Shown: positions 9,343 through 32,523, numbered from the stretch's first letter. The stretch: 64,000 bases of DNA from Nitrospirota bacterium (GCA_011620345.1 WOZJ01000018.1:1-64000); one strand, 5' to 3'. Notes: generated by a model from the letters alone, not told the origin. Numbers and translations are program-made.

Positions 9343-9624
9343 GTGGCACAACACAAAAGTGCGATCAAACGCTACAAACAAAGTTTGCGGAACAGGGCGG
9401 CAAATAGGTCGTACAAGGCTACCATGAAGACGGCCGCCAAGAAGGCTGTCGGCTTAGCCGCGGCAGAAGGGAAAACGGAGCAGAGCCTTGAAGCCATGAA
9501 AACGGCGGTTTCCTTAATCGCCAAGGCTGCCCAAAGGGGTATCATGCATCGCAACGCCTCGAGGCGAAAAATCTCCAAGCTCATGCGTACGATGAATGGA
9601 ACAAAGCAGGCCTCGGCCTCTTAA
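9343..9624 (+). CDS. rpsT: 30S ribosomal protein S20
   Basis: AQHKSAIKR...NRSYKATMKT...GIMHRNASRRKISKL. Confidence 0.96.
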   Translation: MAQHKSAIKRYKQSLRNRAANRSYKATMKTAAKKAVGLAAAEGKTEQSLEAMKTAVSLIAKAAQRGIMHRNASRRKISKLMRTMNGTKQASAS

Positions 9625-13481: not shown

Positions 13482-13484
13482 AAC

Positions 13485-15233
13485 CTATTCCGCAAAGAAG
13501 CGCTGCGTAATGGGCATGCGCCTGTCTTTACCGAACGCCTTGGGGGTAATCTTTACCCCGGGCGGGGCCTGCCTTCGCTTGTATTCGCTCGAGTCAACCA
13601 TCTTAATCACGCGCCTTACGACCTCCTCGGAAAAGCCCAACCCTACAATTTCTTTCAAACTTGCATCCTCCTCAACGTAGGCATGGAGGATTGTGTCCAG
13701 CTCCCGGTAAGGGGGAAGCGAGTCCTCGTCTTTCTGGCCCTCTTTGAGCTCTGCCGAAGGAGGCCTAAAAATCACCTCTTCCGGAATGAGCGAAAACCCC
13801 GCCTTTTGATTTACAAGGTGTGCCAGCTCGTAAACGAGCGTTTTTGGGACATCCTTGATCAGCGCGAACCCCCCGGCCAGATCCCCGTAAAGCGTGCAGT
13901 AGCCAACGCTGAGCTCGGATTTGTTCCCTGTGGCCAACACGAGGTAACCCAGCTTGTTCGACACGGCCATCAAGAGATTGCCCCGAATGCGCGCCTGGAT
14001 GTTCTCCTCTGCCGTCCCATGGGGAAGCTCGTGGAAGTGGGGCTCAAGGTCAGCAAGGTAGGAGGCAAACGTGTTGTCGATCGGAATAGACCAAACTTCG
14101 ACCCCAAGGTTCTCGGAAAGCTGCTTGATGCACCGAAAGGACAATTCCGAAGTAAAACGCGAAGGCATGGATACGCCGAGCACGTTTTCTTTCCCGAGCG
14201 TCAAGACGGCCAACGAGGCGACAAGCGCGCTGTCAATCCCGCCACTCAAGCCCACTACTACCCTGGAAAAGCCGTTTTTGGTCACGTAGTCTTTGAGCCC
14301 TAGCTTCAGGGCCTCTAGCACTTCTTCTTGATCGGAAAGCGGACAGGAGACCCCTAGAGTAGGGAGTGGCGGCTTAGGTTCAGGGGTTAGGGCGTTAGGG
14401 AGCTCAACCACGCCCATGCCTCCATTGCACGAGCCATCTATGCCTTGGATTTCCTTGCGTAGCCTTGGGTTCCGCAGCTGTCGCCTGAAGGGCTCAGGAA
14501 CCTTTAAGTCAAACACAACGGAGTCTTCCTCGAAGGCCTTGGCCTTTGCAGGGATCGAGCCGTCCGAGTCGAAGACGGCGGAGTTGCCGTCAAAGACGAG
14601 TTCGTCCTGACCGCCCACCAAGTTACAAACCAACACAGGGCAGCCGTAATCCAGCGCCCTGGTCTGAAACATGCGCTCCCTTTGGAGCGTTTTGCCCCGC
14701 TGGTAGGGCGAGGCCGAGATGTTCACCAAAACATCCGCACGGCCTTGGAAGGCTTCATCCTTGCACACCCCCGAAGGCAGCCAAAGGTCTTCGCAAATGC
14801 TGAGCCCTATGCGGACGCCCATGTCGAGCAAGACCACGGCCGTGCCTGGCCGGAAGTACCTGTCCTCGTCGAAGACGCCGTAGGTAGGAAGGTTCTGCTT
14901 TCGGTAGCGGGCAATCATTTGCCCGGCATGAAGGACTGCCATGGTGTTGTAGATATCGAAATCCGAATCCACGCTCCCCAAGAGGACAACCTCTCGATGG
15001 ACGGTTTGAGCAATGGCTTCCATCGCCTCTTTTGCTGCCCGAATGAAGTGGGGTTTTAACAGCAAGTCCTCCGGCGGGTAGCCCGTAATCGCCATCTCCG
15101 GGAATACGATGAGGTCCGCCTGAAGCTTTCTTGACCAGGCAATCTTTTCAAGAATTTTGAGCTTATTGCCCGAAATATCCCCAACCGTAACGTTGACCTG
15201 TATAAGGGCGACCCGAAGCGTAGGCATACTCAT
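13485..15233 (-). CDS. nadE: glutamine-dependent NAD+ synthetase
   Basis: Nitrilase-fold domain (FPE, YRKQNLP, ICED) plus SGGIDS, ENIQARIRG, TGNKSE, YKRRQAPPG. Confidence 0.97.
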   Translation of the reverse strand: MSMPTLRVALIQVNVTVGDISGNKLKILEKIAWSRKLQADLIVFPEMAITGYPPEDLLLKPHFIRAAKEAMEAIAQTVHREVVLLGSVDSDFDIYNTMAVLHAGQMIARYRKQNLPTYGVFDEDRYFRPGTAVVLLDMGVRIGLSICEDLWLPSGVCKDEAFQGRADVLVNISASPYQRGKTLQRERMFQTRALDYGCPVLVCNLVGGQDELVFDGNSAVFDSDGSIPAKAKAFEEDSVVFDLKVPEPFRRQLRNPRLRKEIQGIDGSCNGGMGVVELPNALTPEPKPPLPTLGVSCPLSDQEEVLEALKLGLKDYVTKNGFSRVVVGLSGGIDSALVASLAVLTLGKENVLGVSMPSRFTSELSFRCIKQLSENLGVEVWSIPIDNTFASYLADLEPHFHELPHGTAEENIQARIRGNLLMAVSNKLGYLVLATGNKSELSVGYCTLYGDLAGGFALIKDVPKTLVYELAHLVNQKAGFSLIPEEVIFRPPSAELKEGQKDEDSLPPYRELDTILHAYVEEDASLKEIVGLGFSEEVVRRVIKMVDSSEYKRRQAPPGVKITPKAFGKDRRMPITQRFFAE

Positions 15234-15895
15234 TCGCCCTTCTCGTGTGGCGCATGGCGGATGTCCTTGCCCTGAACCATGAACACGATCATCTCGGCGA
15301 TGTTCGTCGTATGGTCTCCTACCCTTTCTAAACTCTTGGCGATGGAAGAAAGGGCGAGAGCCTTGCGGATGTTCTTCGGGTCTTCCATCATGTAGGTCAA
15401 AAGCTCCCGAAACACTTGAATGTTGAGGTCGTCTACGAACTGGTCGTCCGCAATCACGCTTTGGGCAAGCACAGCATCCCCTTCAAAGAAGGCGTCCAAG
15501 CTCCTGCGGATCATCTTGCGTACCTGCTCGGCCATTCTGGGCAGATCCACGTAGGGTTTCAAAGGGGGCTCATTGACGATTTCCAAGACCCTTTCGCCGA
15601 TGTTGACGAGAAGATCCCCGATTCGCTCCAAATCTGTCGTAATCTTTATGGCCGTGAACACAAACCTGAGGTCTTTGGCCGCCGGCTGTTTTAAGACGAT
15701 CATATTCCTAGAAATCCTATCGATCTCAAGCTCGAGCTGGTCGATCTTGTCGTCGGATTCGATAACCATCTGGGCCTTCCGTTCGTCCTTTTCGACGAGC
15801 GCGCCGAGCGCCATTTCAAGGCGCTCTTCGATCATCGCCCCCATCTTGAGGATCAGCCTTCGTACCTCTAGGATGTCTTCGTCGATTCTTCGCAT
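15230..15895 (-). CDS. phoU: phosphate signalling protein PhoU
   Basis: QPAAKDLR, DLERIGD, LERVGDHTTNIAE; adjacent to pstB. Confidence 0.97.
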   Translation of the reverse strand: MRRIDEDILEVRRLILKMGAMIEERLEMALGALVEKDERKAQMVIESDDKIDQLELEIDRISRNMIVLKQPAAKDLRFVFTAIKITTDLERIGDLLVNIGERVLEIVNEPPLKPYVDLPRMAEQVRKMIRRSLDAFFEGDAVLAQSVIADDQFVDDLNIQVFRELLTYMMEDPKNIRKALALSSIAKSLERVGDHTTNIAEMIVFMVQGKDIRHAPHEKGE

Positions 15896-15910
15896 TTTTT
15901 TGCCTAAAAC

Positions 15911-16675
15911 CTAGCCGAATTTTCCGGTAATGTAGTCTTCCGTTTCCTTCTTGGCCGGTGTGACAAAGATCGCCTCGGTCTTATCGTACTCGATCAAGCG
16001 GCCTATGTAGAAGAATGCAGTGGAGTCGCTGCACCTTGCCGCCTGCTGCATGTTGTGCGTAACGATGACGATCGTGTACGAGCTCTTCAAGTCTTGAATT
16101 AACTCTTCGAGCTTTGCCGTTGCAATCGGGTCGAGCGCAGAGGCCGGCTCATCCAAAAGAAGAATCTTCGGGCCTACTGCCAAGGCCCTGGCGATGCAAA
16201 GCCGCTGCTGCTGCCCCCCCGAAAGGCCGAGTGCGGGTTCTCGAAGCCTGTCTTTAACCTCGTCAAACAGCCCGGCCCTTCGCAGGCTATCCTCGACGAT
16301 AGCATCCAAATCTCTTGCGCCGCGAACCCCGTGCAGCTTGGGGCCAAACGCCACGTTGTCGTAGATGGACTTAGGGAAGGGGTTGGCCTTCTGGAACACC
16401 ATCCCGACGTTTTTGCGAAGCTGGGCCACATCCACACCGTTGTTATAGATATCGGCTCCTTCGATCATCACCCGGCCTTCCGCCCTGGCCCCTGGGACAA
16501 GCTCGTGCATACGGTTCAATACCTTCAGGAACGTCGATTTTCCGCAGCCTGACGGGCCAATCAGCGCGGTGATCTGATTGCGGTAAATCTCCATGCTAAC
16601 ACCAAACAGCGCCTGTTTCTTGCCGTAAAAAAAGTTAAGCCCCTCAACCCGAATCGAAACTCTGCCGTTCATCAT
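15911..16675 (-). CDS. pstB: phosphate ABC transporter ATP-binding subunit
   Basis: [48 protein letters not shown]. Confidence 0.97.
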
Positions 16676-16698
16676 AATAAGGACAACCCCTCCATTAG

Positions 16699-17475
16699 TC
16701 AGGCTGACGGAACGAATAAAGACCCGAGCGTGACTTGAGGAAGCACGGCAAAGCTCCGTATGGACTCAAGAACGCCCAAAAAATATCCCTTGCACTCGAT
16801 GTCTCCCGGATGAAACTCTACCCGTAGAATGGGCGAGCGCTGTACTCGAACGCCAAGGCGGACATACGGAAGGGCAAACATCCTCCGAAGGGGGGTTCGG
16901 ACAGACCCAGAGATGACCTTCGAGCGAATACCAAGCCTTTGACGGAAATCTACAAGCCATCCAAAGGTTGCAAGCGAGCGAAACCCGGCCATTTGTACCG
17001 CAGCCCACTGTTTCCTGGAAAGTATCCAGGCGGGAGCAACGAACCCCCCCGGGGAAAGTCCGGCCTGCGAGAGCATTCCAAGGCCTTCTTGAAGGCGTTC
17101 AAGGAGGTGCGGTTCGGCCATACCCAAACACTCCCCCTCTCCGTTGGTCGCCACTCTTTGCAGAACCCGTCTATAGGCCCATTTTAAGTCTTTTGTCAAA
17201 TAAGGATCCCAGCGGTGAAGAATGCCGTGCATCGCCACTTCGTCTCCCTTGGCCATCCTCTCTTTGACATACTTCACGAGCCTGGCTTCCTGCGAAAACT
17301 TCAGCCTGCCATGATACCACGGAACGGCAAGGAGCGTTACCCGCTCCACCCCAACCTTCTCCAGCGCACGCCGGATGGCCACAACTTGGCAAAAGCTTCC
17401 CGGGTAGACGTCATGAATGGCGACGTAAAGAGACTTACCGGCCAAGGAGACTTCTTTGATCCCGCAGGGCAACAT
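16699..17475 (-). CDS. DUF2334-like polysaccharide deacetylase family protein
   Basis: VAIHDV, LLAVP, EVAMHG.LH, GFVAPAW, RVEFHP.D motifs. Confidence 0.8.
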
Positions 17476-18607
17476 ACAAAGCCTTCAGCGATTCGAATGT
17501 ACGGTTCCAACTGAAGCGATCAAGGACAAGCTTCCTCGCGAGCGAACCCAAGCGTTCGCGATCCATACCGAGAACTTTCGCAACGGCATCGGCAAACGCG
17601 CCCGGAGAGGGGTCTGCAACGGGAAAGCTTGCTTGTCCCATGTCGGCACACAGAAAGCCAAGGTTTTTTTGGAATACCACGGGCGTCCCGGAAGACAGCG
17701 CCTCGAGCGCGGCCAAGCCGAACGTCTCATAGCGGCTTGGCATCACGAGCACGTCCACGCTCGCGTACAACACGGCGAGCGTTTGTTTTGGCAGATAGCC
17801 CAAGTACCGAACCACTTGGGGGTGTTCCCGCTGAAGTTCCAGGGCTTGGGGGCTCATGGGCCCGTCCCCCGCGATCAGGCAATTTGTAGCCATTCTTTCC
17901 CAAAGCATGCGCTGAACCTCGAGGAAGAGCGGAAAACACTTGTCTTTGCTAAGCCTGCCCACGTAAAGCACCGAGGGGAGCGAGGGGTCTAGCCCTAAGG
18001 CTTGGAGCAGTTGAGGGTTACGTTTTTCTGGGGCAAACAATGCGGTATCCACGCCGAGGCTCACGAGCGTTGCGTTTTCGATTCCTAATTGTCTCAGCTT
18101 GTCTAAGAGGGGTTGCGTAGCAGCAAGCGTGGCATCGAAGCGGTTATAGAGGGCCTTTGTATATTTAAGCGCGATCGTATAGGGAAGGCTTGCAAGCCGC
18201 CATGGATGCCCATTCCGGGCAGATACCCGAAAATATGTGTCCGAGAAATCGCTGTGGTAAAACCCGACGCATGGAACCTTCCGAGTCCTGGCGTAGTACA
18301 ACGCGCTCCATGGTAAAAGGTCCGGAGAGCCTACTTCAAGCACATCAGGCGCTTCTTTTCTCAAGATTCGAAGGCAGACGAGCGGGTTTAGAATGAGCCG
18401 GTACTGCATGTTCCAAGGAACGGGCATCCCGTGCACCCTGTAGATCTTCCTCCCTGGCACCTCGAGGACCTCGTTCCGTTTGTAAGGCACGATAAGCAGC
18501 TGCTTCCACGCGCCCGTCCTCACGCCGTATTCCCCTTTGGCCTCGAGGTAGGTCTTGATCCCACCGCTCCTTTCCGAGTAGAACTGCGTAAGGTCGCAAA
18601 CGTACAT
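17435..18607 (-). CDS. GT4 glycosyltransferase (PimC-like subfamily)
   Basis: DLTQFYSERSGGIKTYL, YHSD, YVGRLSKDK, ETFGLAALEALSSGTPVV. Confidence 0.9.
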   Translation of the reverse strand: MYVCDLTQFYSERSGGIKTYLEAKGEYGVRTGAWKQLLIVPYKRNEVLEVPGRKIYRVHGMPVPWNMQYRLILNPLVCLRILRKEAPDVLEVGSPDLLPWSALYYARTRKVPCVGFYHSDFSDTYFRVSARNGHPWRLASLPYTIALKYTKALYNRFDATLAATQPLLDKLRQLGIENATLVSLGVDTALFAPEKRNPQLLQALGLDPSLPSVLYVGRLSKDKCFPLFLEVQRMLWERMATNCLIAGDGPMSPQALELQREHPQVVRYLGYLPKQTLAVLYASVDVLVMPSRYETFGLAALEALSSGTPVVFQKNLGFLCADMGQASFPVADPSPGAFADAVAKVLGMDRERLGSLARKLVLDRFSWNRTFESLKALYVALRDQRSLLGR

Positions 18608-18679
18608 TTCCTGCGCTCCGGAGCGATACGAGTGTTTTTTCCATTGTACGCGCGTTCCTCACGATTCGGCAAAGGGCTT

Positions 18680-21214
18680 TCAAGAAAGGCGCTTGAGGGC
18701 AAACGTCTCCCTTGCGTGCATTTGCCAAAATGCCTCAAACGCCTTGTCGAACGAACGATTTTCCATGTACCGCCTGGCCTCGATCGCCATCTCCTGTCTT
18801 CTTGCGGGGCTCTCAAGTAGCTCTTCTATCGCCTTGACGAGCGCGAAACTGCTCCCAGCCTTGAACACAAGGCCCGTCCTGCCTGCTTCAAGGTTCTCGG
18901 AGGGCCCGCCCTCATCGGCCACAACGACGGGGATACCGGAGGCTTGGGCTTCGAGGACGACGTTCCCAAACGTATCCGTCGAGGAGGGAAAGACAAAAAT
19001 ATCGGCAGAAGCGTAAACGCTCGAAAGCTCTTCCCCTTCGAGCGGCCCTGTAAATGTAATGCCAGAACCCTCGCATTTTGCCTTCAGTGCCCCTAAATAA
19101 GGGCCATCCCCCACGACGATCAACCCGGTGTTCTTATGGCGCTCTTTGACAAAAAGGTAGGCATCGATCAGCAGGTCCAAACCCTTCTCTTTCGAGACTC
19201 TTCCCACGTACAGGAGCTTTGTCTCTCCGTTGTTCGAAAAATTTTTCCAGATATCTTGGTTGCGAAAGCGCGGATGGAAGCGCTGAATGTCGATCCCCCT
19301 CGGAAAAACCTTGATCTTATCCGGCGTAAAACCGTTTTGCACCAGTTGGTTCATCGTCGCCTTGGAGGGGACGAATACGATATCCATCTGTTCGTAGTAC
19401 CAGCGGATATATCGCCAGCTCATCTCCTCCATCGAAAAATCTCCCGTTAGAATCCGGACATACTGAGGGATGTCTGTGTGATAGATGCCGTTGATCGGGA
19501 TGTCCAAGAGCCTTGCAACCAACAACCCGGCGAGCCCCATGGGGCCGGGCGTCGAGGAGATCACGGAGTCAAACCCCTCACGCTCGCAAAACTCCACGAT
19601 GTCCAAAAGTGGCGGAACGTAGAGCTTAATGCTCTCGTATTCCGGGATCGGGAATGTCAAGAGCGGAAGAAACTTGACGAACACGTCCTCTAGGTAGGCC
19701 TCAATTTTGGCGTTCTGCGGGCATGCCACGACCTTTAAGTCTTTGGCGCTTCTCTTGGCGGATCGTGCCATCTCGAGGATGGTCCTGGCTACGCCGTTGA
19801 CGTCGAATATGGTGTCCGAAAACCAGACCCTCCTGTCCAAGGGTTCCCCGCGTAGGTCCTCTAGAAGTCCGAGCCCATCTAGGACCTCACGGATACGCTT
19901 TTTGTCTTTGTTTTGATGGTGGTAGGAAAAAAAGTATGGCATAAGCAACATTTGGACCATGGCAAGGGCAGAGAGGTGATTAAAGTTGTCTAAAATCTTG
20001 AAGGTTTTTAAGTTTTTTAAGAACTTCGAGACGAAGTTCGAAGTCATGTGCTGTGAAATGCCGGAGGCGAGCTTTAGGTAGTTCTCGTTGATCGCCTCCC
20101 ACTTTGCCTCGTCCGTAGCCCAAAGGCCCGAAAGCTCTTCGCTATGCGTCAAAAAAGAGGCCCTTCGCCCAAGAATACGAAGGAGGGCCTGATCGCCCTT
20201 TGGGATGTCCTCTCTGGGCTCGTAGCGTTCGATGAGCCGCTTGACCTTTTTTGCGATCGCCGACTGGAGTGTGCCCTTGGCGCCGGACTGGGGGTTTTCT
20301 CCGTTGCTCCCCGACTCTTGAGAAATCTTGTCAAGCAACGAAAATAGCAAATCTTCTGGCTTTTTGACCTCCTTGAGCACGTCCTTTGCTAAAAACTGGT
20401 AAGCAATTGCGTATAAACTATGGGCAAGCCCCAAAGGCGAGCCGTACCGCCCTGCACCCCTGCTCTGGCCAGATCGAAGGAACGAAAGAAACTCTTCAGG
20501 CGTGGCAGCTTTGGGCACAACCGTGTAGGCATGGCCGACAAACAGGCCTCCGTGATCGTCCGAACCCCCTGCCATACCTCGCCTTGTCTCAAGGATAGGC
20601 TCGAGGTCCATCGGGTTTCGGTCGGCAAGCTCGAGCAGGAAGTCTCTTGTAAGGCACCCTAAAAGCCTTTCGAAGGCCATGCTCGTGATCGCTTTTCTCG
20701 AACCGTTCACCGTCTCGAACGCAGGAAACAAGAGCAGCAACCTCTCGATATGGTAGCGTTTCAGGCGGTCGTTAATGGCGTAGAAGGGGTGCGTCACGTA
20801 ATGGACGACGTTCTTTTCGCGCAGATAAGCGACGAGCTCATAGATATTGTCCCGCACGCTCGCGATATCCTCGTGAATCTTTTCGTCGATTCCTAGCACC
20901 TGGACGTGGATCTTGCAATCGTCCTCGGGAAAATATGTCGTGACTTCTTCGCCGATAACCACGTCCGGATGGTGGGCGATTTCGAGCGCTCCATCGATCA
21001 CGTTATGGTCGGTGATCGTCACGAAGTCCATTCCTAACGCCTTCTCCGTGGTGTACACCCAAGAAGGCTCGAGGTAGCTCTCCTGACAGCCTAGCCGCCT
21101 CAAGAGCCACTGCGTGGGCTTTGTGGAGTACTTTGAATGAACGTGAAGATCGGCCATGGATACCAACGCCCGGTCTATATTCGAAGAAAGCTCTTTTCTT
21201 CGTTCGGTGTCCAT
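18680..21214 (-). CDS. PHP-domain / GT4 glycosyltransferase fusion
   Basis: N-terminal PHP metal motifs DLHVHS, TDHN, GEE, HPF, GGSDDH; C-terminal GT4 motifs NGVART, YHTD, RGID, YVGRVSKEK, DTFGNVVLEAQASG. Confidence 0.9.
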   Translation of the reverse strand: MDTERRKELSSNIDRALVSMADLHVHSKYSTKPTQWLLRRLGCQESYLEPSWVYTTEKALGMDFVTITDHNVIDGALEIAHHPDVVIGEEVTTYFPEDDCKIHVQVLGIDEKIHEDIASVRDNIYELVAYLREKNVVHYVTHPFYAINDRLKRYHIERLLLLFPAFETVNGSRKAITSMAFERLLGCLTRDFLLELADRNPMDLEPILETRRGMAGGSDDHGGLFVGHAYTVVPKAATPEEFLSFLRSGQSRGAGRYGSPLGLAHSLYAIAYQFLAKDVLKEVKKPEDLLFSLLDKISQESGSNGENPQSGAKGTLQSAIAKKVKRLIERYEPREDIPKGDQALLRILGRRASFLTHSEELSGLWATDEAKWEAINENYLKLASGISQHMTSNFVSKFLKNLKTFKILDNFNHLSALAMVQMLLMPYFFSYHHQNKDKKRIREVLDGLGLLEDLRGEPLDRRVWFSDTIFDVNGVARTILEMARSAKRSAKDLKVVACPQNAKIEAYLEDVFVKFLPLLTFPIPEYESIKLYVPPLLDIVEFCEREGFDSVISSTPGPMGLAGLLVARLLDIPINGIYHTDIPQYVRILTGDFSMEEMSWRYIRWYYEQMDIVFVPSKATMNQLVQNGFTPDKIKVFPRGIDIQRFHPRFRNQDIWKNFSNNGETKLLYVGRVSKEKGLDLLIDAYLFVKERHKNTGLIVVGDGPYLGALKAKCEGSGITFTGPLEGEELSSVYASADIFVFPSSTDTFGNVVLEAQASGIPVVVADEGGPSENLEAGRTGLVFKAGSSFALVKAIEELLESPARRQEMAIEARRYMENRSFDKAFEAFWQMHARETFALKRLS

Positions 21215-21236
21215 ATCTTAATCCCTCGTTAGGGTT

Positions 21237-22709
21237 CTACTTTGTTTGGCTTTGAAACAACTCCTTCAACCCTTCGGCCCAGGCCAGCATAGCCCGAAAA
21301 ACATCCAAAGAAGCCGATTCGAAATACAGCCTGATTTTGTTCTCGGTGCCAGATGGGCGGATCAAAATCCAAGAGTCATCTTCAAAGTACCTCTTGTAGC
21401 CGTCCAGCGAGGAATCGTGCAGCATCGAGGCCCCTTGGAAGGCGCTTGGGAGGCTTTCGATCGCCAAGCGGAAGGCTTTCTCGGATCGGGCTTCCGCAAT
21501 GGGGATGTCCAACCTCTGGAAGGTAAGCTCTCCGTACCGAGACCTAAGCCTTAAGAGCTGCTCGTGGAAAGGCCCTTCTTTGACCCGCATTTCAAGCGCA
21601 AACATGTCGGTCAAAAGCCCGTCTTTATCCGGGATGTTCGGGGAGTACGCAAAACCTCCACTCTCTTCGACGCCTAGAAGTCCCGAAGATTGCACCATCC
21701 GCGATGCAATGTTTTTGAATCCTACGGGGCTCTCGATCACCTCGACGCCAAAGGCCCTTGCAATACGGTCGACCATGCTTGAGGTGGAAACGCTCTTGAC
21801 GACGGCTCCCCTTTCCCCGCGCACACGAAGCAGGTAATCGACAATCAGCGCAATCAAATCGGTGTTATCGACATAAACCCCCTGATCGTCCATCACCCCA
21901 AAGCGGTCCCCGTCGCCGTCCGTTGCCAGGCCAAGGAGCGCCCCTCTTTGGCGAACCTCGTAAGCCAGGTCACGAAGCGCCCTAGGGGAGGGGGCGGTTT
22001 CGTCAAGGCCTCCAAAGTATGGGTCTGGCTGAGCATGCAGCGGAAACGCGACAGCTCCCACTTTGTTCAGCAGGCTTCCAAAGCACCGGGCACTGGCGCC
22101 GTGAAGAGAGTCGTATACGACAAAGGGATTGGCCTTGTAAATTGCCTGTACATCGAGCAGCGAACACAGATGCTCTACATAATCCTCCTTTGCGGACACG
22201 CTCCGGAGCATCCCTTCGGTTTCGATCGGCTTGGGTACAACGGTGCTTTTATCGCACAAGGCCTCGATTTCGCCCGTTAAAGAGCCGTCCGCAAGCCCCG
22301 TACGCGTTGTAAGCTTGACGCCATGATAGTAAAACGGGTTATGGCTTGCTGTAACGTTGATCCCCAAGTCGTATTTGCCTTGAATGGTCGCAAAAGACAG
22401 CGCCGGGGTTGTTATCGGATAAGCCTCAAAATCTACGGAAACCCCAGAACGCACGAGCGTACAGGCGATCAATTCTGCAAACAACCTGGAAAAAAAGCGC
22501 GTATCGTACCCTAGACGAACAACGCGTTGGGCTTCTGGATAGCCCAGACTCAGGTAGACGGCAATTGCGTTTGCAAGGGTTACAACTTTGGAGAGCGTAA
22601 CTTCTCGGGCAAGGATCCCCCGCCAACCGGAGGTACCAAATCGGATGGGAAAATCGCTTTTATCGAACGTCAGGTTCTCAAAAAGCCCTAAAAATTGGAG
22701 GATATCCAT
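21237..22709 (-). CDS. phosphoglucomutase/phosphomannomutase family protein
   Basis: FGTSGWRG, TASHNP, DGDGDR, GFK, EESGG, DKDG, RPSGTE; ATG start at 22709 is inferred. Confidence 0.93.
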   Translation of the reverse strand: MDILQFLGLFENLTFDKSDFPIRFGTSGWRGILAREVTLSKVVTLANAIAVYLSLGYPEAQRVVRLGYDTRFFSRLFAELIACTLVRSGVSVDFEAYPITTPALSFATIQGKYDLGINVTASHNPFYYHGVKLTTRTGLADGSLTGEIEALCDKSTVVPKPIETEGMLRSVSAKEDYVEHLCSLLDVQAIYKANPFVVYDSLHGASARCFGSLLNKVGAVAFPLHAQPDPYFGGLDETAPSPRALRDLAYEVRQRGALLGLATDGDGDRFGVMDDQGVYVDNTDLIALIVDYLLRVRGERGAVVKSVSTSSMVDRIARAFGVEVIESPVGFKNIASRMVQSSGLLGVEESGGFAYSPNIPDKDGLLTDMFALEMRVKEGPFHEQLLRLRSRYGELTFQRLDIPIAEARSEKAFRLAIESLPSAFQGASMLHDSSLDGYKRYFEDDSWILIRPSGTENKIRLYFESASLDVFRAMLAWAEGLKELFQSQTK

Positions 22710-23770
22710 GATGCAAGCTGCTCCGGTGCAAACTTTCCTTTTGCTTGAAGCGCCCTCACCCGACCATTGAAGTTTTTGAACAAAGCCAGGTCGAATGCCT
22801 TCGGACAAGAACGGTCTACCGTCCCAACGACGGGAACCTTCAAGGTTTTTCCAGCGAACGAAGACAGCTCTTCTTGCCCCAGCTGCTCGATCCTGAGATC
22901 CTCCTTTGCATTACGAGACCACTCCAAGAACACAATCCCTTTCAGCTCTCCCCAGGGCTTTGCAATGCCATGACTGTACACTTCTTGTACGGGAACGTCA
23001 CGCTTCATCTCTAGATTCCAGAGGCTATCTTGCCCTAGGGATGCGAGCTCTTCTAGCTCCTTGTGGCTCAAGAGCGTCCGGAGGTGGGGGTCGGAGAAGA
23101 TCGTCCCGGGATTTACCCTAGGAAGCTTTGGAAACCCGACGGCTTGAATGGATGACCCTGCATATCCTACGAGCACCCTATCGTTGGCCACGTAACGGAA
23201 CCCTTCGCCAAGGAGTCTAAGGAGCGTCGTTGTCTTGCCTCTCCCGGAGCTCGAGGCGATGAGAACAACGCCACCCTCCCTTGTAGCCGCGGCGCCGGCG
23301 TGGAACAGCAAGAATCCAGCCTCAAGCCAGGCAAGGCTCAACACGTCGTTCACGACGTTGACCGCGGAATTCCAATCCGAAACGCCAGGCTCTTCAAACC
23401 ATACCACTCGCCGTTCACCGTTTACGATGTAGCGCAAGCCGGAGCGAACTTTCTTGATCACCAGGAAGGACCCTATTTTCAGCAAAGCATCTTTCGCCGA
23501 AATAGGCCCAAAGGAGAGCCCGTCGAGCCATTCTGGGAACCTTCCCACAAGCACCGACTTGAACTGGAGGCTTGGTCCAAAAGGCATCCTCCCCTCTTCG
23601 ACAAGGTAGGGGCCGTAGCGGTCCAGCAAAGGGGTCAGAGGCTTTTGGTTGGGTGCACTGACAATCAATTCCTGCCCCATGAGGACAAGCGGAAAACGAT
23701 GGATAGCCCTACGTTCCTCTTGCGCCAGGAAGGCCGCCAGGGAAGATTCAAGCGAGCCGTCGAAGGACAT
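22688..23770 (-). CDS. HprK-related kinase B (GAK system)
   Basis: LFHAG, P-loop SGRGKTT, NDR, PKLPRVNPGT; follows the GAK-type ATP-grasp gene; start is inferred. Confidence 0.85.
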   Translation of the reverse strand: MSFDGSLESSLAAFLAQEERRAIHRFPLVLMGQELIVSAPNQKPLTPLLDRYGPYLVEEGRMPFGPSLQFKSVLVGRFPEWLDGLSFGPISAKDALLKIGSFLVIKKVRSGLRYIVNGERRVVWFEEPGVSDWNSAVNVVNDVLSLAWLEAGFLLFHAGAAATREGGVVLIASSSGRGKTTTLLRLLGEGFRYVANDRVLVGYAGSSIQAVGFPKLPRVNPGTIFSDPHLRTLLSHKELEELASLGQDSLWNLEMKRDVPVQEVYSHGIAKPWGELKGIVFLEWSRNAKEDLRIEQLGQEELSSFAGKTLKVPVVGTVDRSCPKAFDLALFKNFNGRVRALQAKGKFAPEQLASWISSNF

Positions 23771-24638
23771 AGCCGGCAAACAATCGGGCGGCATCCAACC
23801 CGTATGCTTCATGCAGTCCACGAAACCCGCCAAAGGCGCTGACTTCGTAGACCAAAAAACCATCCGGCCCTTCGACAAGGTCCACTCCGGCATAACTAAG
23901 GCCAAACACGCGCTCAGCCTGTTTTGCTACCTCAAAGGCCGGCCCAGGGAGGTCGTAAGGCTCATAATGCCCGCCTTCTATAGTGGTCGTTTTCCAACTC
24001 CCCTCCTTCGCCACACGAGCATAGGCTTTAAGGAACTCTCCGCCAAGAAACATCACCCCTATGTCCCGCGTCCCTTTGGCAGGGATGAACTCTTGCACAT
24101 AAAAGAATGGGCCATGGGTTTGCTTCCAAGCCTCTAGCGCACCTTTCTCGGCTTCCGGCTTGCCCAAACCAACCCGGAGCATTCCACGAGCCTTTGAGGT
24201 GAAAAGGGGCTTGATGACGGCCTCTTGCACCTCCCTAAGGAAATTCAACACATCCTCGGACCGCTCCGTGATCAGGGTCTTTGGCATGGGAACGCCCGCA
24301 AGAGCAAGGCGGAGCGTCATGCTCATACGATCAATCGCCGCCGCGATCGCTTCGGGGGGAGAGAATACGGGCGTTCCCAGGGATTGAATCGCTTTGAGCT
24401 GCGCTACGCGCTCTGTCAGCGTAATATCGGAGGAATCGCCCAGCTTCTTCACTACCACCGCATCGATGGACAGCGCATCCTCGGACCCGAGGCGGACTTT
24501 AAGCGAAGGCAACGATGCCGCGATCGCATCGTAAGGGACCAAAAAAGCCTCGGCCCCCTCCTCGAGAAAGGCTTCTTTAAGCTTTTCGGAAGACCAACCG
24601 CCGGGGATACCGACAACCGCTATTCGCTTTGAGGCCAT
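23748..24638 (-). CDS. GAK system ATP-grasp enzyme (RimK-like)
   Basis: N-terminus IAVVGIPGGWSSE, VVKKLG, KPLFTSKARGM, DIGVMFLGG, YARV, VYEVSAFGGFRGL. Confidence 0.88.
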   Translation of the reverse strand: MASKRIAVVGIPGGWSSEKLKEAFLEEGAEAFLVPYDAIAASLPSLKVRLGSEDALSIDAVVVKKLGDSSDITLTERVAQLKAIQSLGTPVFSPPEAIAAAIDRMSMTLRLALAGVPMPKTLITERSEDVLNFLREVQEAVIKPLFTSKARGMLRVGLGKPEAEKGALEAWKQTHGPFFYVQEFIPAKGTRDIGVMFLGGEFLKAYARVAKEGSWKTTTIEGGHYEPYDLPGPAFEVAKQAERVFGLSYAGVDLVEGPDGFLVYEVSAFGGFRGLHEAYGLDAARLFAGYVLRRLA

Positions 24639-26224
24639 GCGATAAACCGTTCCAAGTGTAGAATGCCTAACAGATAAAGTTTTTTTGCCAACTCCAGTTG
24701 GTTGACAACCCTGCTCGAAGTAATGAACACGCGGCCCAATGCAACCATAAGCCTTCGTTTGGCATGGCGATCGCTGTAAGCGCGGCCAAACGCTTCGGCA
24801 AACCTTTCGAGTGATTCATTCACAAAGACTAAGTCTTCTTTAAGGTAGGTAGAAAGGAGTGGGTTTCGAATGTTCGAAACGATGATCGTTGCGATATCCT
24901 GAATATAATCCCCATAGCCGGAGCGGTGCACATCGATGAACTTTACGCCGTCTGTTCTGCTATCGTAAAACACATTATTGGAGTTAAAATCTCCGTGAAT
25001 CCAAACTTCAAACGGCGGGAGAACCTCTTCTTCTAGCAGGGCGGCTCCTTGAAGGAGTTCGGTTAAGGAAGGGGCTGACTTACCGCAAAAGGAAACGGGA
25101 AACTTCCTGATCTCTTCAAGCTCTGGATAAAAGGCATGCACCTCTTTTAGTCGCTTGATCAATTGAGGAACATAGCGGGTCGAAGGCTCTGCTTTTCGGA
25201 TTGTCGATTGCCATAGCATCCGAAGAACTTCGATAATCCTCTCGAGCGATCGACGTTTCAGCTCAAAGTCCCCGAAAAAGAGGATTTCTTCGAAAGTCTT
25301 GCCCTGGAGGTATTCCGTGACAAGGATCTCTCGGTCCCCAAAGTACTGCTCGACCGTTAATTTAGGAACGACTCCAGGATAAACCCTCTGCCAATCCTCG
25401 ATCTTCTGCGCCTCTTCCGAGATCTTACTCCGTTCACCTTCTTTAAGCACAAGACGCCGATGGCCATCTTGCTCCACAAGGAAAACGCGCGCGCCGCTTT
25501 TCCCCCCCCAAAGCGCCTGCATCCCGGCTACCGAGTGATTTTCTAGGGTTTCCCGGATATGCAGCAGCTGATGGACTTTTATCTTTTCTCCTAGAATCGT
25601 GTAAACCCCAAGCTCTCCCAAATTGGCAAGAACATCCCCCATGTTCTCGGCATATTTGAGGGCGAAGAGATAGGCGATTGGAAAATTCTCCTCGCTTAAG
25701 CCTACGCGACTCGCCTCATCGAAAAGGGCGGCTACTCCTCGCTGGTAAATTTCATCCAGCCTCACCTCGAAAGCGCAGACATCCTGCGCAAGCTCGATAT
25801 CTTTCTGAAAGAGCGCGTCGAGAGCCATCTTGAGCCCAGCATCAATGATATCTGCAAGCTCATCAATGGGCACCCACGGAGGTATCGGGGAGTTGTCCTT
25901 GATATGAAGGGTCTGCTTTGCGATGTTCACCCCGTAATCGGCCAGCTTCTCTAAGTTGGTCGAAACCCTTACGTACCCCCTAAGAGAGAGAACCTCCGGC
26001 TTAGGGAGCTTTCCTTGCTCAATGAGGTCAAAACACCGGTCTACAATAAGAACATTCAGGGCGTCGATTCGGTCGTCCTTATCGATCACGCCCTGGGCAA
26101 GCGCTTTATCTCCCCCCTTAAAGGCCTCGAAGGCCTCCGCAACGAGAGCTCCAACCATTCGGGCCATCTTGCCCAGCTCATGCTGGATGTTTTCTGCATC
26201 CAGCCTTGCGTTTGCAATATCCAT
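24620..26224 (-). CDS. PhoU-domain / APH-like phosphotransferase fusion (GAK-associated)
   Basis: Tandem PhoU repeats (DDRID, NLEKLADY, DEIY, ENMGD) followed by a kinase fold (GGKSG, VLK, HGDFNSNN, FIDVHRS..DYIQD). Confidence 0.88.
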   Translation of the reverse strand: MDIANARLDAENIQHELGKMARMVGALVAEAFEAFKGGDKALAQGVIDKDDRIDALNVLIVDRCFDLIEQGKLPKPEVLSLRGYVRVSTNLEKLADYGVNIAKQTLHIKDNSPIPPWVPIDELADIIDAGLKMALDALFQKDIELAQDVCAFEVRLDEIYQRGVAALFDEASRVGLSEENFPIAYLFALKYAENMGDVLANLGELGVYTILGEKIKVHQLLHIRETLENHSVAGMQALWGGKSGARVFLVEQDGHRRLVLKEGERSKISEEAQKIEDWQRVYPGVVPKLTVEQYFGDREILVTEYLQGKTFEEILFFGDFELKRRSLERIIEVLRMLWQSTIRKAEPSTRYVPQLIKRLKEVHAFYPELEEIRKFPVSFCGKSAPSLTELLQGAALLEEEVLPPFEVWIHGDFNSNNVFYDSRTDGVKFIDVHRSGYGDYIQDIATIIVSNIRNPLLSTYLKEDLVFVNESLERFAEAFGRAYSDRHAKRRLMVALGRVFITSSRVVNQLELAKKLYLLGILHLERFIAWPQSE

Positions 26225-26227
26225 GCC

Positions 26228-26533
26228 TCAAGGCTGGACCTCATTCTCAACAGGCTCACGCTCGATCGTAATCAGAAGTGGCTCAGCGGTCATCTCCGCC
26301 TTTTTCTCCCAGGAAAGCTTGAGCACGAGCTTTGCTTTCCCTTCTTTCTTTTTTGCCTCCACATCCAGCTCAATCGCCCCTTCGGGGGTCAAGTACATCT
26401 CTTCTCCGCCGCTTGTCAGGCGTACAGTCCCATTCCTTAGGGCGCTTGCGAGGCTCTCTAAATATTCGGCAACGATATGCGGTTCGGCGAACGTGCTAAA
26501 CTCAAACTCTTCTTTCTGCCCTCTTTTTGCCAT
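26228..26533 (-). CDS. amphi-Trp domain protein
   Basis: VAEYLESLASALRNG amphipathic helix, beta strands, terminal LKLSW; AGGAG RBS. Confidence 0.88.
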   Translation of the reverse strand: MAKRGQKEEFEFSTFAEPHIVAEYLESLASALRNGTVRLTSGGEEMYLTPEGAIELDVEAKKKEGKAKLVLKLSWEKKAEMTAEPLLITIEREPVENEVQP

Positions 26534-26590
26534 CTACGCCGCTCCTTTTATGACATTCTAAAGCCATTTTAGCGTTTTTTTCGGCAAGCC

Positions 26591-27118
26591 TCAATGCCCA
26601 AGAACCCTAAAGCCTTTTTCTGAGCGGTTTAAAGCCCTGTAGACTTTTCCTTCCTTTTGGAGCTTTCCCTCTCCGATCAGCCGGAGCACGACAGGAACCA
26701 GCTTTCTCCAGTTCTCTCCAAGGCCCTCACCCAACTCGATCAGCGAGGCACCGTGAGGTTTTACGTGCAACAAATAATCTAGCACCCTTTCGTCCTGCAA
26801 ATTGCTTCCAGGGGCCGACACAGGCTGAAAAGCGCCCTCGACGATGGTGTCGAACTCTTGGGGTCGAACATCTCGCACGCTCAACATAGGGACATCTTTC
26901 CAACTCAAAACAACTTTTACTTTTTCTTTATATTTGCTGGAGTTTATAGGCTTACGACTCGCCTTGATCCGCAACAGCGGGAGTGACGATCGAGCAAAAC
27001 TGAGGTGTTGCATCCCAGCTCGGATCGTAAAATGCCCCTCGCGCACGCCGTCGGCAAGGAAGCTAAGCAGGTTGGCCACCCTTTCCTTGTCCAATTTCAG
27101 CAGTTCCTTCATCACCAA
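26591..27118 (-). CDS. amphi-Trp domain protein with C-terminal winged-helix-like domain
   Basis: VANLLSFLADGVREG...KVVLSW, then VLDYL...GASLIELGEGLG...LIGEGKLQKEGKVY. Confidence 0.72.
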   Translation of the reverse strand: MVMKELLKLDKERVANLLSFLADGVREGHFTIRAGMQHLSFARSSLPLLRIKASRKPINSSKYKEKVKVVLSWKDVPMLSVRDVRPQEFDTIVEGAFQPVSAPGSNLQDERVLDYLLHVKPHGASLIELGEGLGENWRKLVPVVLRLIGEGKLQKEGKVYRALNRSEKGFRVLGH

Positions 27119-27341
27119 TGTCCAAGGCCCTCCCTTTCAACCCCTCGATCTTGAGGGCAATACGGAAGCGATCCCCATCCTCTTTGAGCTCAAACTCGAG
27201 CGCAACTGGACCGACAAGGAGTATGGGTTTCGAAGGCTCAAGCCCGCCTTCTACGACAAGCTTCCCCTTTGCAAACCCATACCCTAGGGTTCGAAGAAAT
27301 TCCGCCGCTTCATCTCGGTTTAGCGTACGCTTAAAACGCAT
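27063..27341 (-). CDS. amphi-Trp-like protein lacking the terminal Trp
   Basis: FKRTLNRDEAAEFLRTLGYGFAKG...ALEFELKE...IALKI. Confidence 0.68.
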   Translation of the reverse strand: MRFKRTLNRDEAAEFLRTLGYGFAKGKLVVEGGLEPSKPILLVGPVALEFELKEDGDRFRIALKIEGLKGRALDIGDEGTAEIGQGKGGQPA

Positions 27342-27369
27342 TCTCTTCTTTTGTCACACACATAACGGG

Positions 27370-28149
27370 CTAACAGGCCAAACGGCCGGGAACCTCCAAG
27401 GGAACTTCATCGATTCCCCTTGCACGCTTCACGGCCCTCTTGATCTTATGGCTCATGTACACCCTGAGTGCAGGGAATTTGCCGCAGTAATAGTTGGTCT
27501 TCCGGTCGTGGATGGCGCTAAACAGGTGCTCAAGGCCAAACCGCTCGTCCGGAACGAGGGTCGCTCTAACGGCCAATTGAAGCCAATGGTGGGCATCAGA
27601 CCCGCCTGTCACGGCAAGTTCGAGCTCAGAGGCGCGCTGAAGCAGCTTGAGCTCCAGCCCGTAATCCTTTCCGTTCACCTCCACGGCATCAAGACGCTTG
27701 AGAAGCCTTTCGGGAAACTTTTCTAGGTTTTTTTCTCCTCTAAACATGTGCGCACCGATAAGCAATACCTCAAGCCCATCGCGGGCACCAAGCAATTCCT
27801 CGAATGGCGGCTTGTAGCCCGACACCGGGGGCATAGAAAGCCTCGCTGCAAGGGTACGGACATGTTCAACCGGGCCTATGGCCAAGATGTCCCCCCCCTC
27901 GGCAATGCTAATCTCCGCGCCAGGAAGAAATGCAAAATTCTTTCCGACTCGGTACACCCCGTCTTTGTATGGAAAACGAGACGAAAAGTAGCGGTATACG
28001 CCAAAATAATCCGGCGCGTGCAAGTGCTCTGTAACCGCTATGCCTTGCAGGCCGACTACAGAAGCGGTCCTGATGTAACGATCGACGCGCTTCGGTTCGA
28101 ACGTGAACGTTTTGGATAGCATCATATGGGTGTGCAGGTCTATGACCAT
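27370..28149 (-). CDS. PHP-domain phosphoesterase
   Basis: DLHTH, TEH, GAE, AHMFR, EVNGK, GGSDAH; AGGAGG RBS. Confidence 0.9.
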   Translation of the reverse strand: MVIDLHTHMMLSKTFTFEPKRVDRYIRTASVVGLQGIAVTEHLHAPDYFGVYRYFSSRFPYKDGVYRVGKNFAFLPGAEISIAEGGDILAIGPVEHVRTLAARLSMPPVSGYKPPFEELLGARDGLEVLLIGAHMFRGEKNLEKFPERLLKRLDAVEVNGKDYGLELKLLQRASELELAVTGGSDAHHWLQLAVRATLVPDERFGLEHLFSAIHDRKTNYYCGKFPALRVYMSHKIKRAVKRARGIDEVPLEVPGRLAC

Positions 28150-28191
28150 TTATTGCCTCCTGACGGCTAGTGTTTTACCAATCATGAGATC

Positions 28192-28248
28192 AGCGTACCA
28201 CAGCCCAGGTTGCAGCTTTGTGACGGAAACGTTACGGTTTTATTACAA
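28192..28248 (-). promoter_or_regulatory. Pho-box-like array (4 x 11-bp units) plus -10 element
   Basis: Minus strand reads TTGTAAT-AAAA-CCGTAAC-GTTT-CCGTCAC-AAAG-CTGCAAC, then 11 nt, then TACGCT preceded by TGG; resembles PhoB CTGTCAT/C-N4 repeats. Confidence 0.75.
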
Positions 28249-30516
28249 GGCATCGGCTTTCCACGAGGCGACAAAGCAGCTCGCAGTGTTTTTTTTGGCG
28301 ACCTTTTTGAGTTTGGCCGCCTCCTCTCCCACCTCAAGATGCCCATCAAATGCTCCAGGCTCAAGCAGAACGCCAGCCATAGAGATGGCGATGAGGGGAA
28401 ATTCCCGAACGTGCCCTTCTCTATCCTGGGACACAATGTATCCCCGGCTCCGGTCCTCTTCGGTGTAGAAGTTCGCGATGGAGGCGTCGAAACGTTCGAC
28501 AATTTCCATACAGGCTTTTTCCGAGTTTTCTACGGGGAGGATGAAGATAAAGTCATCCCCCCCAACATGCCCCAAAAACCCATCCTCGGCTTGATCGATC
28601 GCGCTCTTGAGCGTAAAGGCCGTATATTTGATCACATCGTCCCCATGGGTGAACCCATAACGGTCGTTGTAGGCTTTGAAGTTGTCGAGGTCCGCATAGA
28701 CAACCACGTGCCTAAGGCGCCCTTGAATCCTTCGGTTGATCTCGTCGTAAATCGGGATGTTTCCGGGTAGCCCCGTCAACGGGTTTGCATACGTTGCGAA
28801 CAATATCTGGAGCTCGGAGGTCTTTCGGAATAGCTCGTGGACAGTCCCTAGCCCTGAATACTTCCCGGACTTCGTCACAAGAAATGGATCATACACACGA
28901 AAAGGCGGGCGTTCCAGGCAGGCCCTGGAAACACGCTCTAGAGAATCCGTTGCTTCGACGATCACGGGGTTGGAGTCCATTAATCGCTCGATCGGCTTTT
29001 CGCAGTATAAGGCATACCCAAACTCACTGGATAGTTTAAGGAACAAGGGTTCGCGGACAACGAGGCCGACGGGACTTCCCATTGGGTTGACAACAGGCAA
29101 CGCCACCAGGTCTTCTTTCTCCTTGAACCTCTGAACCACTACCCTTACCTTTGTGGTTGGGAAAATGGGTTCGACAAAATGTTTCAGTTCCTCGATGCCG
29201 CTTCCCGAGGCGGGCCTTTCGCCGATTTCTACCTTGGAAAACAATTTGTGGATCTCCGTAAGTGACTCCGAAAAACCAGCCACCGATTCGTTCGGCCTTC
29301 CCAAGAAATAGCCTTGCCCTAGGTCGACTCCAAGCTTATAGACCTCTTTGAGCTCATCAAAGGTCTCGATTCCCTCGGCAACAACGAGGACTCCTAAGGA
29401 GTGGGCCAAATCCACGAGAGAACGCACAAGGCGGAGCTTGATGTATGACTTGCCGAGATCTTGGATAACTCCCCTGTCTATCTTGATGATATCCGGCGTT
29501 TGATGGACAAGGATAGGGATGAGGCTGATGCCGGCACCCACGTCGTCGATTGCCACGACAAACCCCTGACGCTTGTAATGGGCAATGGCCTCGAGCACGC
29601 CTTGGAGGGTAGGGAGCCTGATATTTTCCGTAACCTCGACAACGAGCTGATCGTAGGAAAGCCCATACCTCTGGGCAAGCGCTTTGGTAAGCCCAATTTC
29701 CCGGGAAGGCGCTAAGACCACTTCAGGGTCGATGTTTACGGCAAGCCTTTTTTGAATCTTTTGCCTCGAGGCGTTAAAGAAGGCGCGTTCCCGCATGGCT
29801 CCCTCGAGCAACGTCAGCTGGCTCGTCTCTTTGGCGGCTCCGATAAGCTGAACGATGTTTAAAAACGGCACGGAGGTTGTAGGGAAGGAGAGGCATTCAT
29901 AGCCAAACAATTCGGCCGTCTTGAGCGAATAGATCGGCTGGAAACGCGTAGAAATGAGCCCCCTTTGAATAATCTCCTGAATGCCGGCCTCTATCTTGTA
30001 AGAGGTGTCGTAGCCCTTGTCGTCCCCCTTCCCTCCGTCGTTTAGCGTAGTGTTGAGGTCTTGGAAGATACGAAGAACCTGATAATCCAAGGAAAGCTCG
30101 CAATTCAACGCCGCTTCCAGCACGCCAACACGAATGTCCCCCCGCAAAGAGGCGCCATCTTCTATCCCAAAGGCCTGAAGAAAGGCGGGATTTTGGAAGA
30201 ACTCCCTAATTTTTGGTACCACGACCATTTTCTCGCTACGCTCGATTGGAGCGTCGGGGATTAGAAGAAGCTCCCATGGGCCGATCACGCAGCCGGTCCC
30301 ATCGATGCCCGCATATTCGGCCAGCGATTCTGCAAGGGTTCGCGTCTGGTAAAGATCGACCTTAGAGGATGCGCTTGCCTGGCCATTGCCAATAATTTCC
30401 CGGAAGTTTACAGAAAACACACAAAACCTCTGCCTTTCAGAAAGCAGGCGCTTCATGAACACGATCAGGGATTCGAGGTCGGGCAAGAGACCGAGACGTC
30501 TCGATTTTTCTCGCAT
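28243..30516 (-). CDS. EAL-CBS-GGDEF c-di-GMP signalling protein
   Basis: FQPI..YECL, EVTE, IDDVGAG, IKID, AEGIET, GQGY; CBS pair; DLDNFKAYNDRYG, GHVGGDDF; start ATG 30516 (alternative 30576). Confidence 0.92.
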   Translation of the reverse strand: MREKSRRLGLLPDLESLIVFMKRLLSERQRFCVFSVNFREIIGNGQASASSKVDLYQTRTLAESLAEYAGIDGTGCVIGPWELLLIPDAPIERSEKMVVVPKIREFFQNPAFLQAFGIEDGASLRGDIRVGVLEAALNCELSLDYQVLRIFQDLNTTLNDGGKGDDKGYDTSYKIEAGIQEIIQRGLISTRFQPIYSLKTAELFGYECLSFPTTSVPFLNIVQLIGAAKETSQLTLLEGAMRERAFFNASRQKIQKRLAVNIDPEVVLAPSREIGLTKALAQRYGLSYDQLVVEVTENIRLPTLQGVLEAIAHYKRQGFVVAIDDVGAGISLIPILVHQTPDIIKIDRGVIQDLGKSYIKLRLVRSLVDLAHSLGVLVVAEGIETFDELKEVYKLGVDLGQGYFLGRPNESVAGFSESLTEIHKLFSKVEIGERPASGSGIEELKHFVEPIFPTTKVRVVVQRFKEKEDLVALPVVNPMGSPVGLVVREPLFLKLSSEFGYALYCEKPIERLMDSNPVIVEATDSLERVSRACLERPPFRVYDPFLVTKSGKYSGLGTVHELFRKTSELQILFATYANPLTGLPGNIPIYDEINRRIQGRLRHVVVYADLDNFKAYNDRYGFTHGDDVIKYTAFTLKSAIDQAEDGFLGHVGGDDFIFILPVENSEKACMEIVERFDASIANFYTEEDRSRGYIVSQDREGHVREFPLIAISMAGVLLEPGAFDGHLEVGEEAAKLKKVAKKNTASCFVASWKADAL

Positions 30517-30687
30517 AAACACCGCTAACGCCCTTTTTGGTTTTTTTTTACTGTAACACAACGGATATACGCACAAGCCCTAAGGCGCGCGGTATTCCTT
30601 CAGAAAGCCCGCCCGTATAGGCGCTTTCTCGGTAACTCTCTTCTTTTAGGAATGAAAGGATTTAAAAAAATGCGACCCCTAGGAGCG

Positions 30688-32459: not shown

Positions 32460-32523
32460 TGCTGCCCTTCCTTTGTTGTGTGTAACTTCAGGAACCTAAC
32501 GAACGACCCTTCCTTTGCCTATC

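Follow-up and report, generated by a model that had tools for sequence, protein, structure and literature searches.

The 64,000-nt stretch of Nitrospirota bacterium DNA analyzed here (GCA_011620345.1, WOZJ01000018.1:1-64000; hereafter the window, to which all gene coordinates refer) contains a unit of 13 genes on the minus strand, in which a GAK (Grasp/Amphipathic/Kinase) module is followed by glycosyltransferase genes and by pstB-phoU. The unit is probably a super-operon activated by PhoB and built by this lineage out of three independent modules of the Pho regulon: (1) GAK; (2) a lipid module composed of a phosphohexomutase, a fused PHP–family 4 glycosyltransferase (PHP-GT4), and a GpgS/GpgD-like pair; and (3) pstB-phoU, running into nadE-leuS. 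The source genome (G000) is 1.8 Mb long and 96.8% complete. An earlier note on this DNA had described 13 co-oriented genes, overlapping or at most 72 bp apart, between 15230 and 28248. Examination of the open reading frames (ORFs) and gaps confirmed all 13 genes, their order, and a widest gap of 72 bp, and family scans with hidden Markov models (HMMs) agreed with the earlier gene names. The end at 15230 did not hold, as phoU overlaps nadE by 4 bp and co-oriented genes continue. The block is collinear and 93.7% identical in one relative (L014 and G001, counted as one).

The head of the unit has the four-unit Pho-box-like array, the −10 element, and the ribosome-binding site that the earlier note had placed there. 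Four tandem 11-bp PhoB-type repeats (28205–28248) lie directly before an extended −10 (28192–28200), read from the sequence and located 11 nt past the last half-site, and an AGGAGG ribosome-binding site follows (28156–28161), all on the minus strand. A first matrix was built de novo from six Escherichia coli promoter regions, five of which were kept (phoE was dropped, its site looking off). In the whole genome, it put the array (28248–28205) first among 3,585,178 four-unit positions and second among 3,586,762 three-unit positions; no two-unit window of the array was within the top 18. The PhoB consensus of Desulfovibrio vulgaris again returned the array as the top genome site, with 2 mismatches over four half-sites, making it the best four-unit site by two independent models, and with a third matrix 0/500 shuffles matched its score. 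In L014 the array differs by three changes, each of which stays within the E. coli-type box or moves towards it. The motif is near-palindromic and scores on the plus strand too. The last half-site, the 11-nt spacer, and the TG-extended −10 also precede a second Pho operon in the genome (phoX-like-pstSCA), and this arrangement is conserved in G001. The extended −10 was not picked up by a generic promoter scan, which requires a −35, and generic promoter and terminator scans gave chance-level output.

The only full-length PhoB-like regulator of the genome (275 bits; cut-off, 296) is encoded beside a PhoR-like kinase (291 bits; cut-off, 334). The array and these two genes give strong sequence support to the earlier suggestion that the unit is induced by phosphate limitation, and we strongly predict it to be a phosphate-starvation (PhoB-driven) operon; in the first step of the mechanism proposed here, low phosphate would very likely lead PhoB to bind the four-unit array and to activate transcription from around 28185. 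One metatranscriptome yielded 8 short contigs, one spanning 27200–28176, in which start, strand, and co-transcription were not readable, and it was not used.

The unit closes with pstB (15911–16675, minus strand; TIGR00972, 398 bits, above cut-off) and phoU (15230–15895, minus strand; TIGR02135, 217 bits, above cut-off). Neither G000 nor G001 has a second pstB match above the cut-off. The second Pho operon, phoX-like-pstS-pstC-pstA, has no pstB and is located at G000:C26:142248-146276 (L136, L001); its PhoX-like secreted protein has 359 aa (27 bits; cut-off, 24), and the PhoB-type site in its promoter is weaker, with two units (p 0.03) and 3 mismatches on the strict model. Because the only pstB lies in the unit and pstSCA lies elsewhere, the importer needs both operons; it is quite likely that the transcript of the unit, ending in pstB-phoU, would provide the ATPase and the regulator for PstSCA produced from the second PhoB promoter. 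In the accessible text on the D. vulgaris PhoB regulon (PMC3333781), pstSCA is likewise apart from pstB-phoU and the half-site (c/t)GT(n)AC likewise occurs in direct repeat, but pstB-phoU follows phoB there, whereas here it ends a GAK-lipid operon. Three separate phosphate cues had been counted in the earlier note (Pho boxes, the PhoU-kinase fusion, and terminal pstB-phoU). All are present, but two of them are not peculiar to the locus, the PhoU-kinase being a standard part of GAK and a split pst occurring also in D. vulgaris. Searches for Ppk1, Ppk2, PhoD, and PhoA found none in G000; G001 does have a PhoA.

Downstream of phoU, nadE (assigned by HMM) and three genes read from their translations as leuS, lptE, and holA occupy 9621–15233 on the minus strand with no gap exceeding 3 bp; they adjoin the unit without a break, but the phosphate response probably does not include them. 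It is conceivable, though rather unlikely, that pstB-phoU shares a housekeeping transcript with these genes and that the PhoB transcript covers the first 11 genes or fewer. The overlap of phoU with nadE, the essential genes that follow, and a weak sigma-70-like site directly before pstB (9/12 matches, in a scan that gave 10 sites vs 8.2 expected) agree with such an arrangement. However, DUF2334 and pstB are only 23 bp apart, no convincing terminator was found in the gaps of the unit and no Pho box before pstB, and the two transcript arrangements can coexist. Given the essential genes downstream, a constitutive promoter is likely to lie internally, ahead of pstB or nadE.

The earlier note had taken the 13 genes as one coupled system, which the distribution of the modules does not bear out. 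We surveyed 299 other genomes domain-wide, a set of 285 genomes of one phylum, hold-out GAK loci from 22 genomes, and a comparison set of 80 metagenome and 3 plasmid GAK loci, from which near duplicates had been dropped and in which genes were called by our own script, with imperfect starts. Of the 299 genomes, 9 carry GAK and 18 others PHP-GT4, and none carries both. PHP-GT4 lies near GAK in 3/42 other metagenome loci, and directly upstream of it and co-oriented in L149 and L156 (2/22 hold-out loci). In the 285-genome phylum, 16 genomes have GAK, 4 have PHP-GT4, and 3 have both, all from one family; in two of these three the fusion is located immediately upstream of GAK. A coupled system, in which GAK would handle the head groups or phosphate from lipid remodeling or modify the lipid enzymes, draws on this adjacency in several lineages and on the co-occurrence in three of the four PHP-GT4 genomes of that phylum. 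We nevertheless hold it to be improbable: the fusion is found in 0/9 GAK genomes and, without GAK, in 18/299, its position relative to GAK varies (upstream, downstream, or convergent), and shared PhoB control explains the clustering. Shared regulation would lead to just such a repeated but loose joining of GAK and PHP-GT4. None of the loci with both carries the GpgS/GpgD-like pair with the mutase; the tail of phosphohexomutase, GT4, DUF2334, and pstB-phoU was seen in this genus only; and the whole 13-gene unit had no second case among the loci examined. The 13-gene unit is local to this lineage.

Judged from family matches and gene order, the first part of the unit is a divergent, CofD-less GAK module (all genes on the minus strand). 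It begins with a PHP metal phosphoesterase of 259 aa (27370–28149; PF13263, above cut-off), followed by three amphi-Trp proteins (92 aa, 27063–27341, 41 bits; 175 aa, 26591–27118, 29 bits; and 101 aa, 26228–26533, 62 bits; TIGR04354 cut-off, 31). These are followed by a PhoU-kinase fusion with two PhoU repeats and an APH-like kinase (24620–26224; family scans), a GAK-type ATP-grasp ligase of the RimK/LysX/MptN clan (23748–24638; TIGR04356, 285 bits; cut-off, 300), and an HprK-related kinase B (HprK-B; 22688–23770; TIGR04355, 131 bits; cut-off, 200), the likely start of which is 23770, with the longest ORF from 23905. The GAK identity proposed earlier gains support from the amphi-Trp families and from the core order of amphi-Trp, PhoU-kinase, ATP-grasp, and HprK-B, as usual in GAK loci. 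The earlier note had named failure of the GAK HMMs among the outcomes that would refute its reading; two of the three amphi-Trp proteins exceed their cut-off, whereas the ligase and HprK-B fall below theirs. In comparison with the GAK system as defined (TIGR04354–TIGR04358), the core and the leading phosphoesterase are shared, but the unit has a short PHP protein in place of a long PHP-fold orphan, three amphi-Trp genes, no CofD-like or XXXCH match, and lipid genes and pstB-phoU thereafter. No paper on GAK was found in the literature searched, outside of which lay subscription papers and preprint supplements, and "amphi-Trp" came up as one table row.

Both kinases and the ligase retain their catalytic motifs. 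TIGR04356 is the best family of the ligase by 121 bits, relatives at 42–43% identity bear the GAK ATP-grasp name, and the solved relatives are RimK and LysX; the next family, and best non-GAK match, is MptN (164 bits, vs 130 for RimK). The family-invariant EVS (residues 265–267 here), where RimK has EVN, may mark a chemistry differing from that of RimK. In HprK-B, whose best solved relative is HPr kinase, the P-loop and ND motifs are invariant across the 35 ligase-neighbor homologues aligned. In the PhoU-kinase, the acidic motifs of the PhoU half and, in the kinase half, the Lys, HGDFxxNN, and DxHRS motifs are intact and invariant. The metal motifs of the short PHP protein are invariant in 5 homologues, and on the evidence of modeled folds this protein is taken to fill the phosphoesterase slot of GAK. 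The 388-aa orphan gene product of canonical GAK loci (L030:339-1502 and 23 homologues), which is covered by no Pfam or NCBIfam model, was modeled as a PHP fold with a helical insertion (predicted local distance difference test, pLDDT, 90), matching 3o0f (Z-score, 16.0; root-mean-squared deviation, 3.4; 245 aligned residues) and RNase AM (Z-score, 15.3). Comparing profiles did not relate the long orphan to the short PHP protein; only the fold search linked them. In proteobacterial GAK loci, the enzymes are calcineurin-like, SixA-like, and NUDIX. Nearly all GAK cores have a phosphoesterase with them, including 22/22 hold-out GAK loci.

TIGR04357 (CofD-like) had no match in the 96.8%-complete genome and was found in 20/42 other loci, so that it is not universal. 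As a stand-in for CofD, the phosphohexomutase was considered and rejected, the GAK-neighbor mutases in L027 and L142 being of another subfamily (25% identity for L027). TIGR04358 (XXXCH) had no match here nor in any control genome; tblastn was also negative, although it was a weak search, in which a pstS query missed the known pstS. The amphi-Trp family has no invariant residue and has variable charged tails, many of which are long and Lys-rich or acidic. Amphi-Trp protein 3 is predicted to form an intertwined homodimer (dimer score, 0.75, vs 0.00 for the best control; contact agreement, 98%; pLDDT, 76), at a score mark reached by 20/30 solved dimers and 1/23 monomers. The monomer model had no fold match (best Z-score, 2.4), which does not show a new fold. 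Amphi-Trp protein 2 has only 6 homologues, all at least 67% identical. Its C-terminal extension (26591–26794, minus strand) is winged-helix-like by eye and confined to close relatives; it had no Pfam match, and a search of the PDB returned nothing useful.

The search for Pho boxes across GAK loci, as proposed in the earlier note, gave a signal in the comparison set and a weaker one in the 22 hold-out genomes. Two half-sites with a period of 11 and at most 1 mismatch precede 14/39 GAK lead genes (13/38 without the window locus) vs 2/135 controls (P 8e-9); the same test is positive for 10/36 Pho genes, and periods of 8–10 and 12–14 before GAK lead genes gave only 0–2 positives. With the E. coli matrix, 8/40 GAK loci were positive vs 6/148 controls. 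A core Pho gene (pst, phoB-like, phoU, phoH, phoA, phoX, or ppk1) occurs in 16/42 GAK loci of at least 9 kb and in 3.9% of random windows, a background taken from the source genome only. Several results weigh against a general assignment of GAK to the Pho regulon. In the hold-outs, the strict motif was found in 0/9 and 0/13, and a matrix trained on Pho genes reached p<=0.05 in 2/9 (Fisher, 0.19; rank test, 0.003) and 3/13; only a relaxed, post-hoc half-site separated them from controls (8/22 vs 17/147, P 0.006; shuffled mean, 2.0). Core Pho neighbors are rare there, with one PhoB-like gene in 22 loci. The controls peak at period 11 too and may contain Pho genes, and GAK genes are not recognizable in the D. 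vulgaris PhoB target list, as far as the accessible text gives it (PMC3333781). We read the GAK-Pho link from these comparisons as apparently common but not universal, with boxes that would be lineage-specific. Four GAK promoters of one phylum (L146, L151, L153, and L158) have a variant half-site with 11 or 22 bp spacing, missed by the strict consensus. An OlsF-like ornithine-lipid synthase adjoins GAK in L048, L069, and L140, and the copy in L069 has PhoB-type repeats upstream.

The lipid module begins with the phosphohexomutase (21237–22709, minus strand; likely start, 22709), an extra paralogue with four PGM_PMM domains and intact catalytic loops, which shares 34% and 25% identity with two further copies elsewhere in the genome. 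The PHP-GT4 fusion (18680–21214, minus strand; family scans) is a probable Agt-type glycolipid synthase. Both of its active sites are intact, its PHP metal ligands are invariant or nearly so in 30 sequences, and among 8000 scored it has 3555 homologues at E<=1e-100; homologues in Desulfovibrionales are 41–43% identical over 96%. In the accessible text of PMC5193443, a mutant of D. alaskensis G20 in Dde_3613 ("Agt") lost all glycolipids in low phosphate, and the supplement lists Dde_3613 under the automatic label of a glycosyltransferase group I and PHP domain N-terminal family. By this label and the phosphate context we infer that PHP-GT4 would do the same job as Dde_3613, although here its gene stands with those for a mutase, another GT4, and a deacetylase. 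Since no LpxH/PlcP-like gene was found in the genome, the PHP half likely supplies the dephosphorylated lipid; no paper on this half (PHP with a glycosyltransferase under phosphate limitation) was found in the literature searched.

The adjacent GT4 (17435–18607, minus strand; NF053787, 222 bits; cut-off, 480; next family, 72) and DUF2334 deacetylase (16699–17475, minus strand; PF10096, 68 bits; NF053788, 125 bits; cut-off, 280) have GpgS and GpgD as their best family matches, as in gpgSDF for GlcN-PG synthesis in Pseudomonas aeruginosa (PMC12713373). They differ in lying well below the cut-offs and in having no flippase in the unit (no GpgF there; two PF03706 genes elsewhere in the genome), and the accessible text of that paper is without PhoB. 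By analogy, the pair suggests an amino-sugar lipid. A second GpgS-like GT4 (153 bits) lies outside the unit at G000:C68:76511-77719 (L135). The PhoB-controlled GT4 enzymes Sgt1 and Sgt2 of Caulobacter likewise act in sequence on lipid under phosphate starvation, according to the accessible text of PMC6445935; here, unlike in Sgt1/Sgt2 and PlcP-Agt, the phosphoesterase is a fused PHP and not PlcP. Two points stand against the lipid assignment: orthology with Dde_3613 is set by labels, not by sequence comparison, and the GpgS/GpgD product of Pseudomonas contains phosphate.

Among known systems, PlcP-Agt lipid remodeling is also close to the lipid module. From a characterized analogue, it is likely that the mutase would feed UDP-sugars to PHP-GT4, which would make glycosyl- and glycuronosyl-diacylglycerol while its PHP half strips phosphate from the lipid precursor, and that the GpgS/GpgD-like pair would add and then deacetylate N-acetylglucosamine (GlcNAc), giving a cationic amino-sugar lipid. 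The synthesis of phosphorus-free glycoconjugates suggested earlier is thereby supported and, by the architecture of Dde_3613, narrowed to presumptive membrane glycolipids.

For GAK, the best fit is a covalent cycle on the amphi-Trp proteins, since enzymes that could write and erase a modification occur there together with an abundant partner that is not catalytic. Peptides other than HPr are also substrates of HprK-like kinases. Only tentatively, as the weakest step of the mechanism, we propose that abundant amphi-Trp dimers undergo a reversible cycle of covalent modification: phosphate and glutamate would be written by the two kinases (PhoU-gated and HprK-like) and the RimK-like ligase and erased by the PHP enzyme, so as to buffer or signal cytoplasmic phosphate. 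In Dissulfuribacter, an amphi-Trp protein ranked within the top 20 proteins by abundance under one condition (PMC13490349). It counts against the cycle that the amphi-Trp C-termini share no terminal residue, unlike a LysW-type carrier.

A close rival, unlikely but to be taken seriously, is the synthesis or salvage by GAK of a small phosphorylated metabolite or cofactor, through a kinase, a CofD-like transferase, and a glutamate ligase as in the tailoring of F420 or methanopterin; the amphi-Trp proteins would then serve as scaffold. The ligase matches MptN better than RimK, APH-like kinases act on small molecules, a CofD-like gene accompanies nearly half of the loci, proteobacterial loci have NUDIX, SixA-like, and calcineurin-like hydrolases, and the nearest relatives of the long PHP protein are hydrolases of nucleotide phosphates, RNase AM among them. 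Yet the CofD-like gene is absent from this nearly complete genome and from many loci, so that the core works without it, and the presence of an HprK-like kinase suggests that the substrate is a peptide.

We consider it doubtful that GAK is a Ppk-independent phosphate store, in which the amphi-Trp proteins, or a polymer they hold, would bank phosphate for release by PHP, and equally doubtful is the variant in which PhoU-gated kinases and a glutamate ligase would load phosphate on amphi-Trp dimers and PHP would unload it. Ppk1 was found in 0/9 and 0/16 (24 distinct) and in 0/2 GAK-positive genomes, none of 26 in all, which is only suggestive, and the lack of Ppk2 here, the potentially very high abundance of amphi-Trp proteins, and their many long Lys-rich or acidic tails fit such a store. 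However, Ppk1 is uncommon overall (71/301; 34/285), the exclusions reach P 0.08 and 0.12 among kin that are not independent, and ppk1 adjoins GAK in L051 and L079. If a store did exist, a streamlined genome would head its strongest PhoB operon with GAK, tied to its only pstB.

Upstream of the unit lies an EAL-CBS-GGDEF gene (28243–30576, minus strand), with a stop codon that runs into the first PhoB half-site; a Pho box was looked for upstream of it and none was found. Its homologues occur near GAK in L041, L070, and L138, and EAL/GGDEF genes are among the D. vulgaris PhoB targets. Further upstream, a radical SAM protein of 440 aa without a named subfamily is encoded at 30688–32010 (minus strand). 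Downstream of holA, a perfect 12/12 sigma-70 consensus promoter is located at 9184–9211 (minus strand). The window has two 100-N assembly gaps, one at 32439–32654, flanked by a short duplicated stretch, and the other near 40000–42000.

GAK is widespread, with 9/299 sampled genomes positive and 770 ligase homologues among 8000 scored. A place for GAK in the phosphate-starvation response would name its inducing condition, its regulator, and candidate substrates, so that GAK would become testable. In this genome one may also see the components that a minimal Pho response retains, namely PstSCA with a PhoX-like phosphatase, the remodeling of glycolipids, and GAK. The PHP half of an Agt-type enzyme and the extra amino-sugar step would be further new ground.

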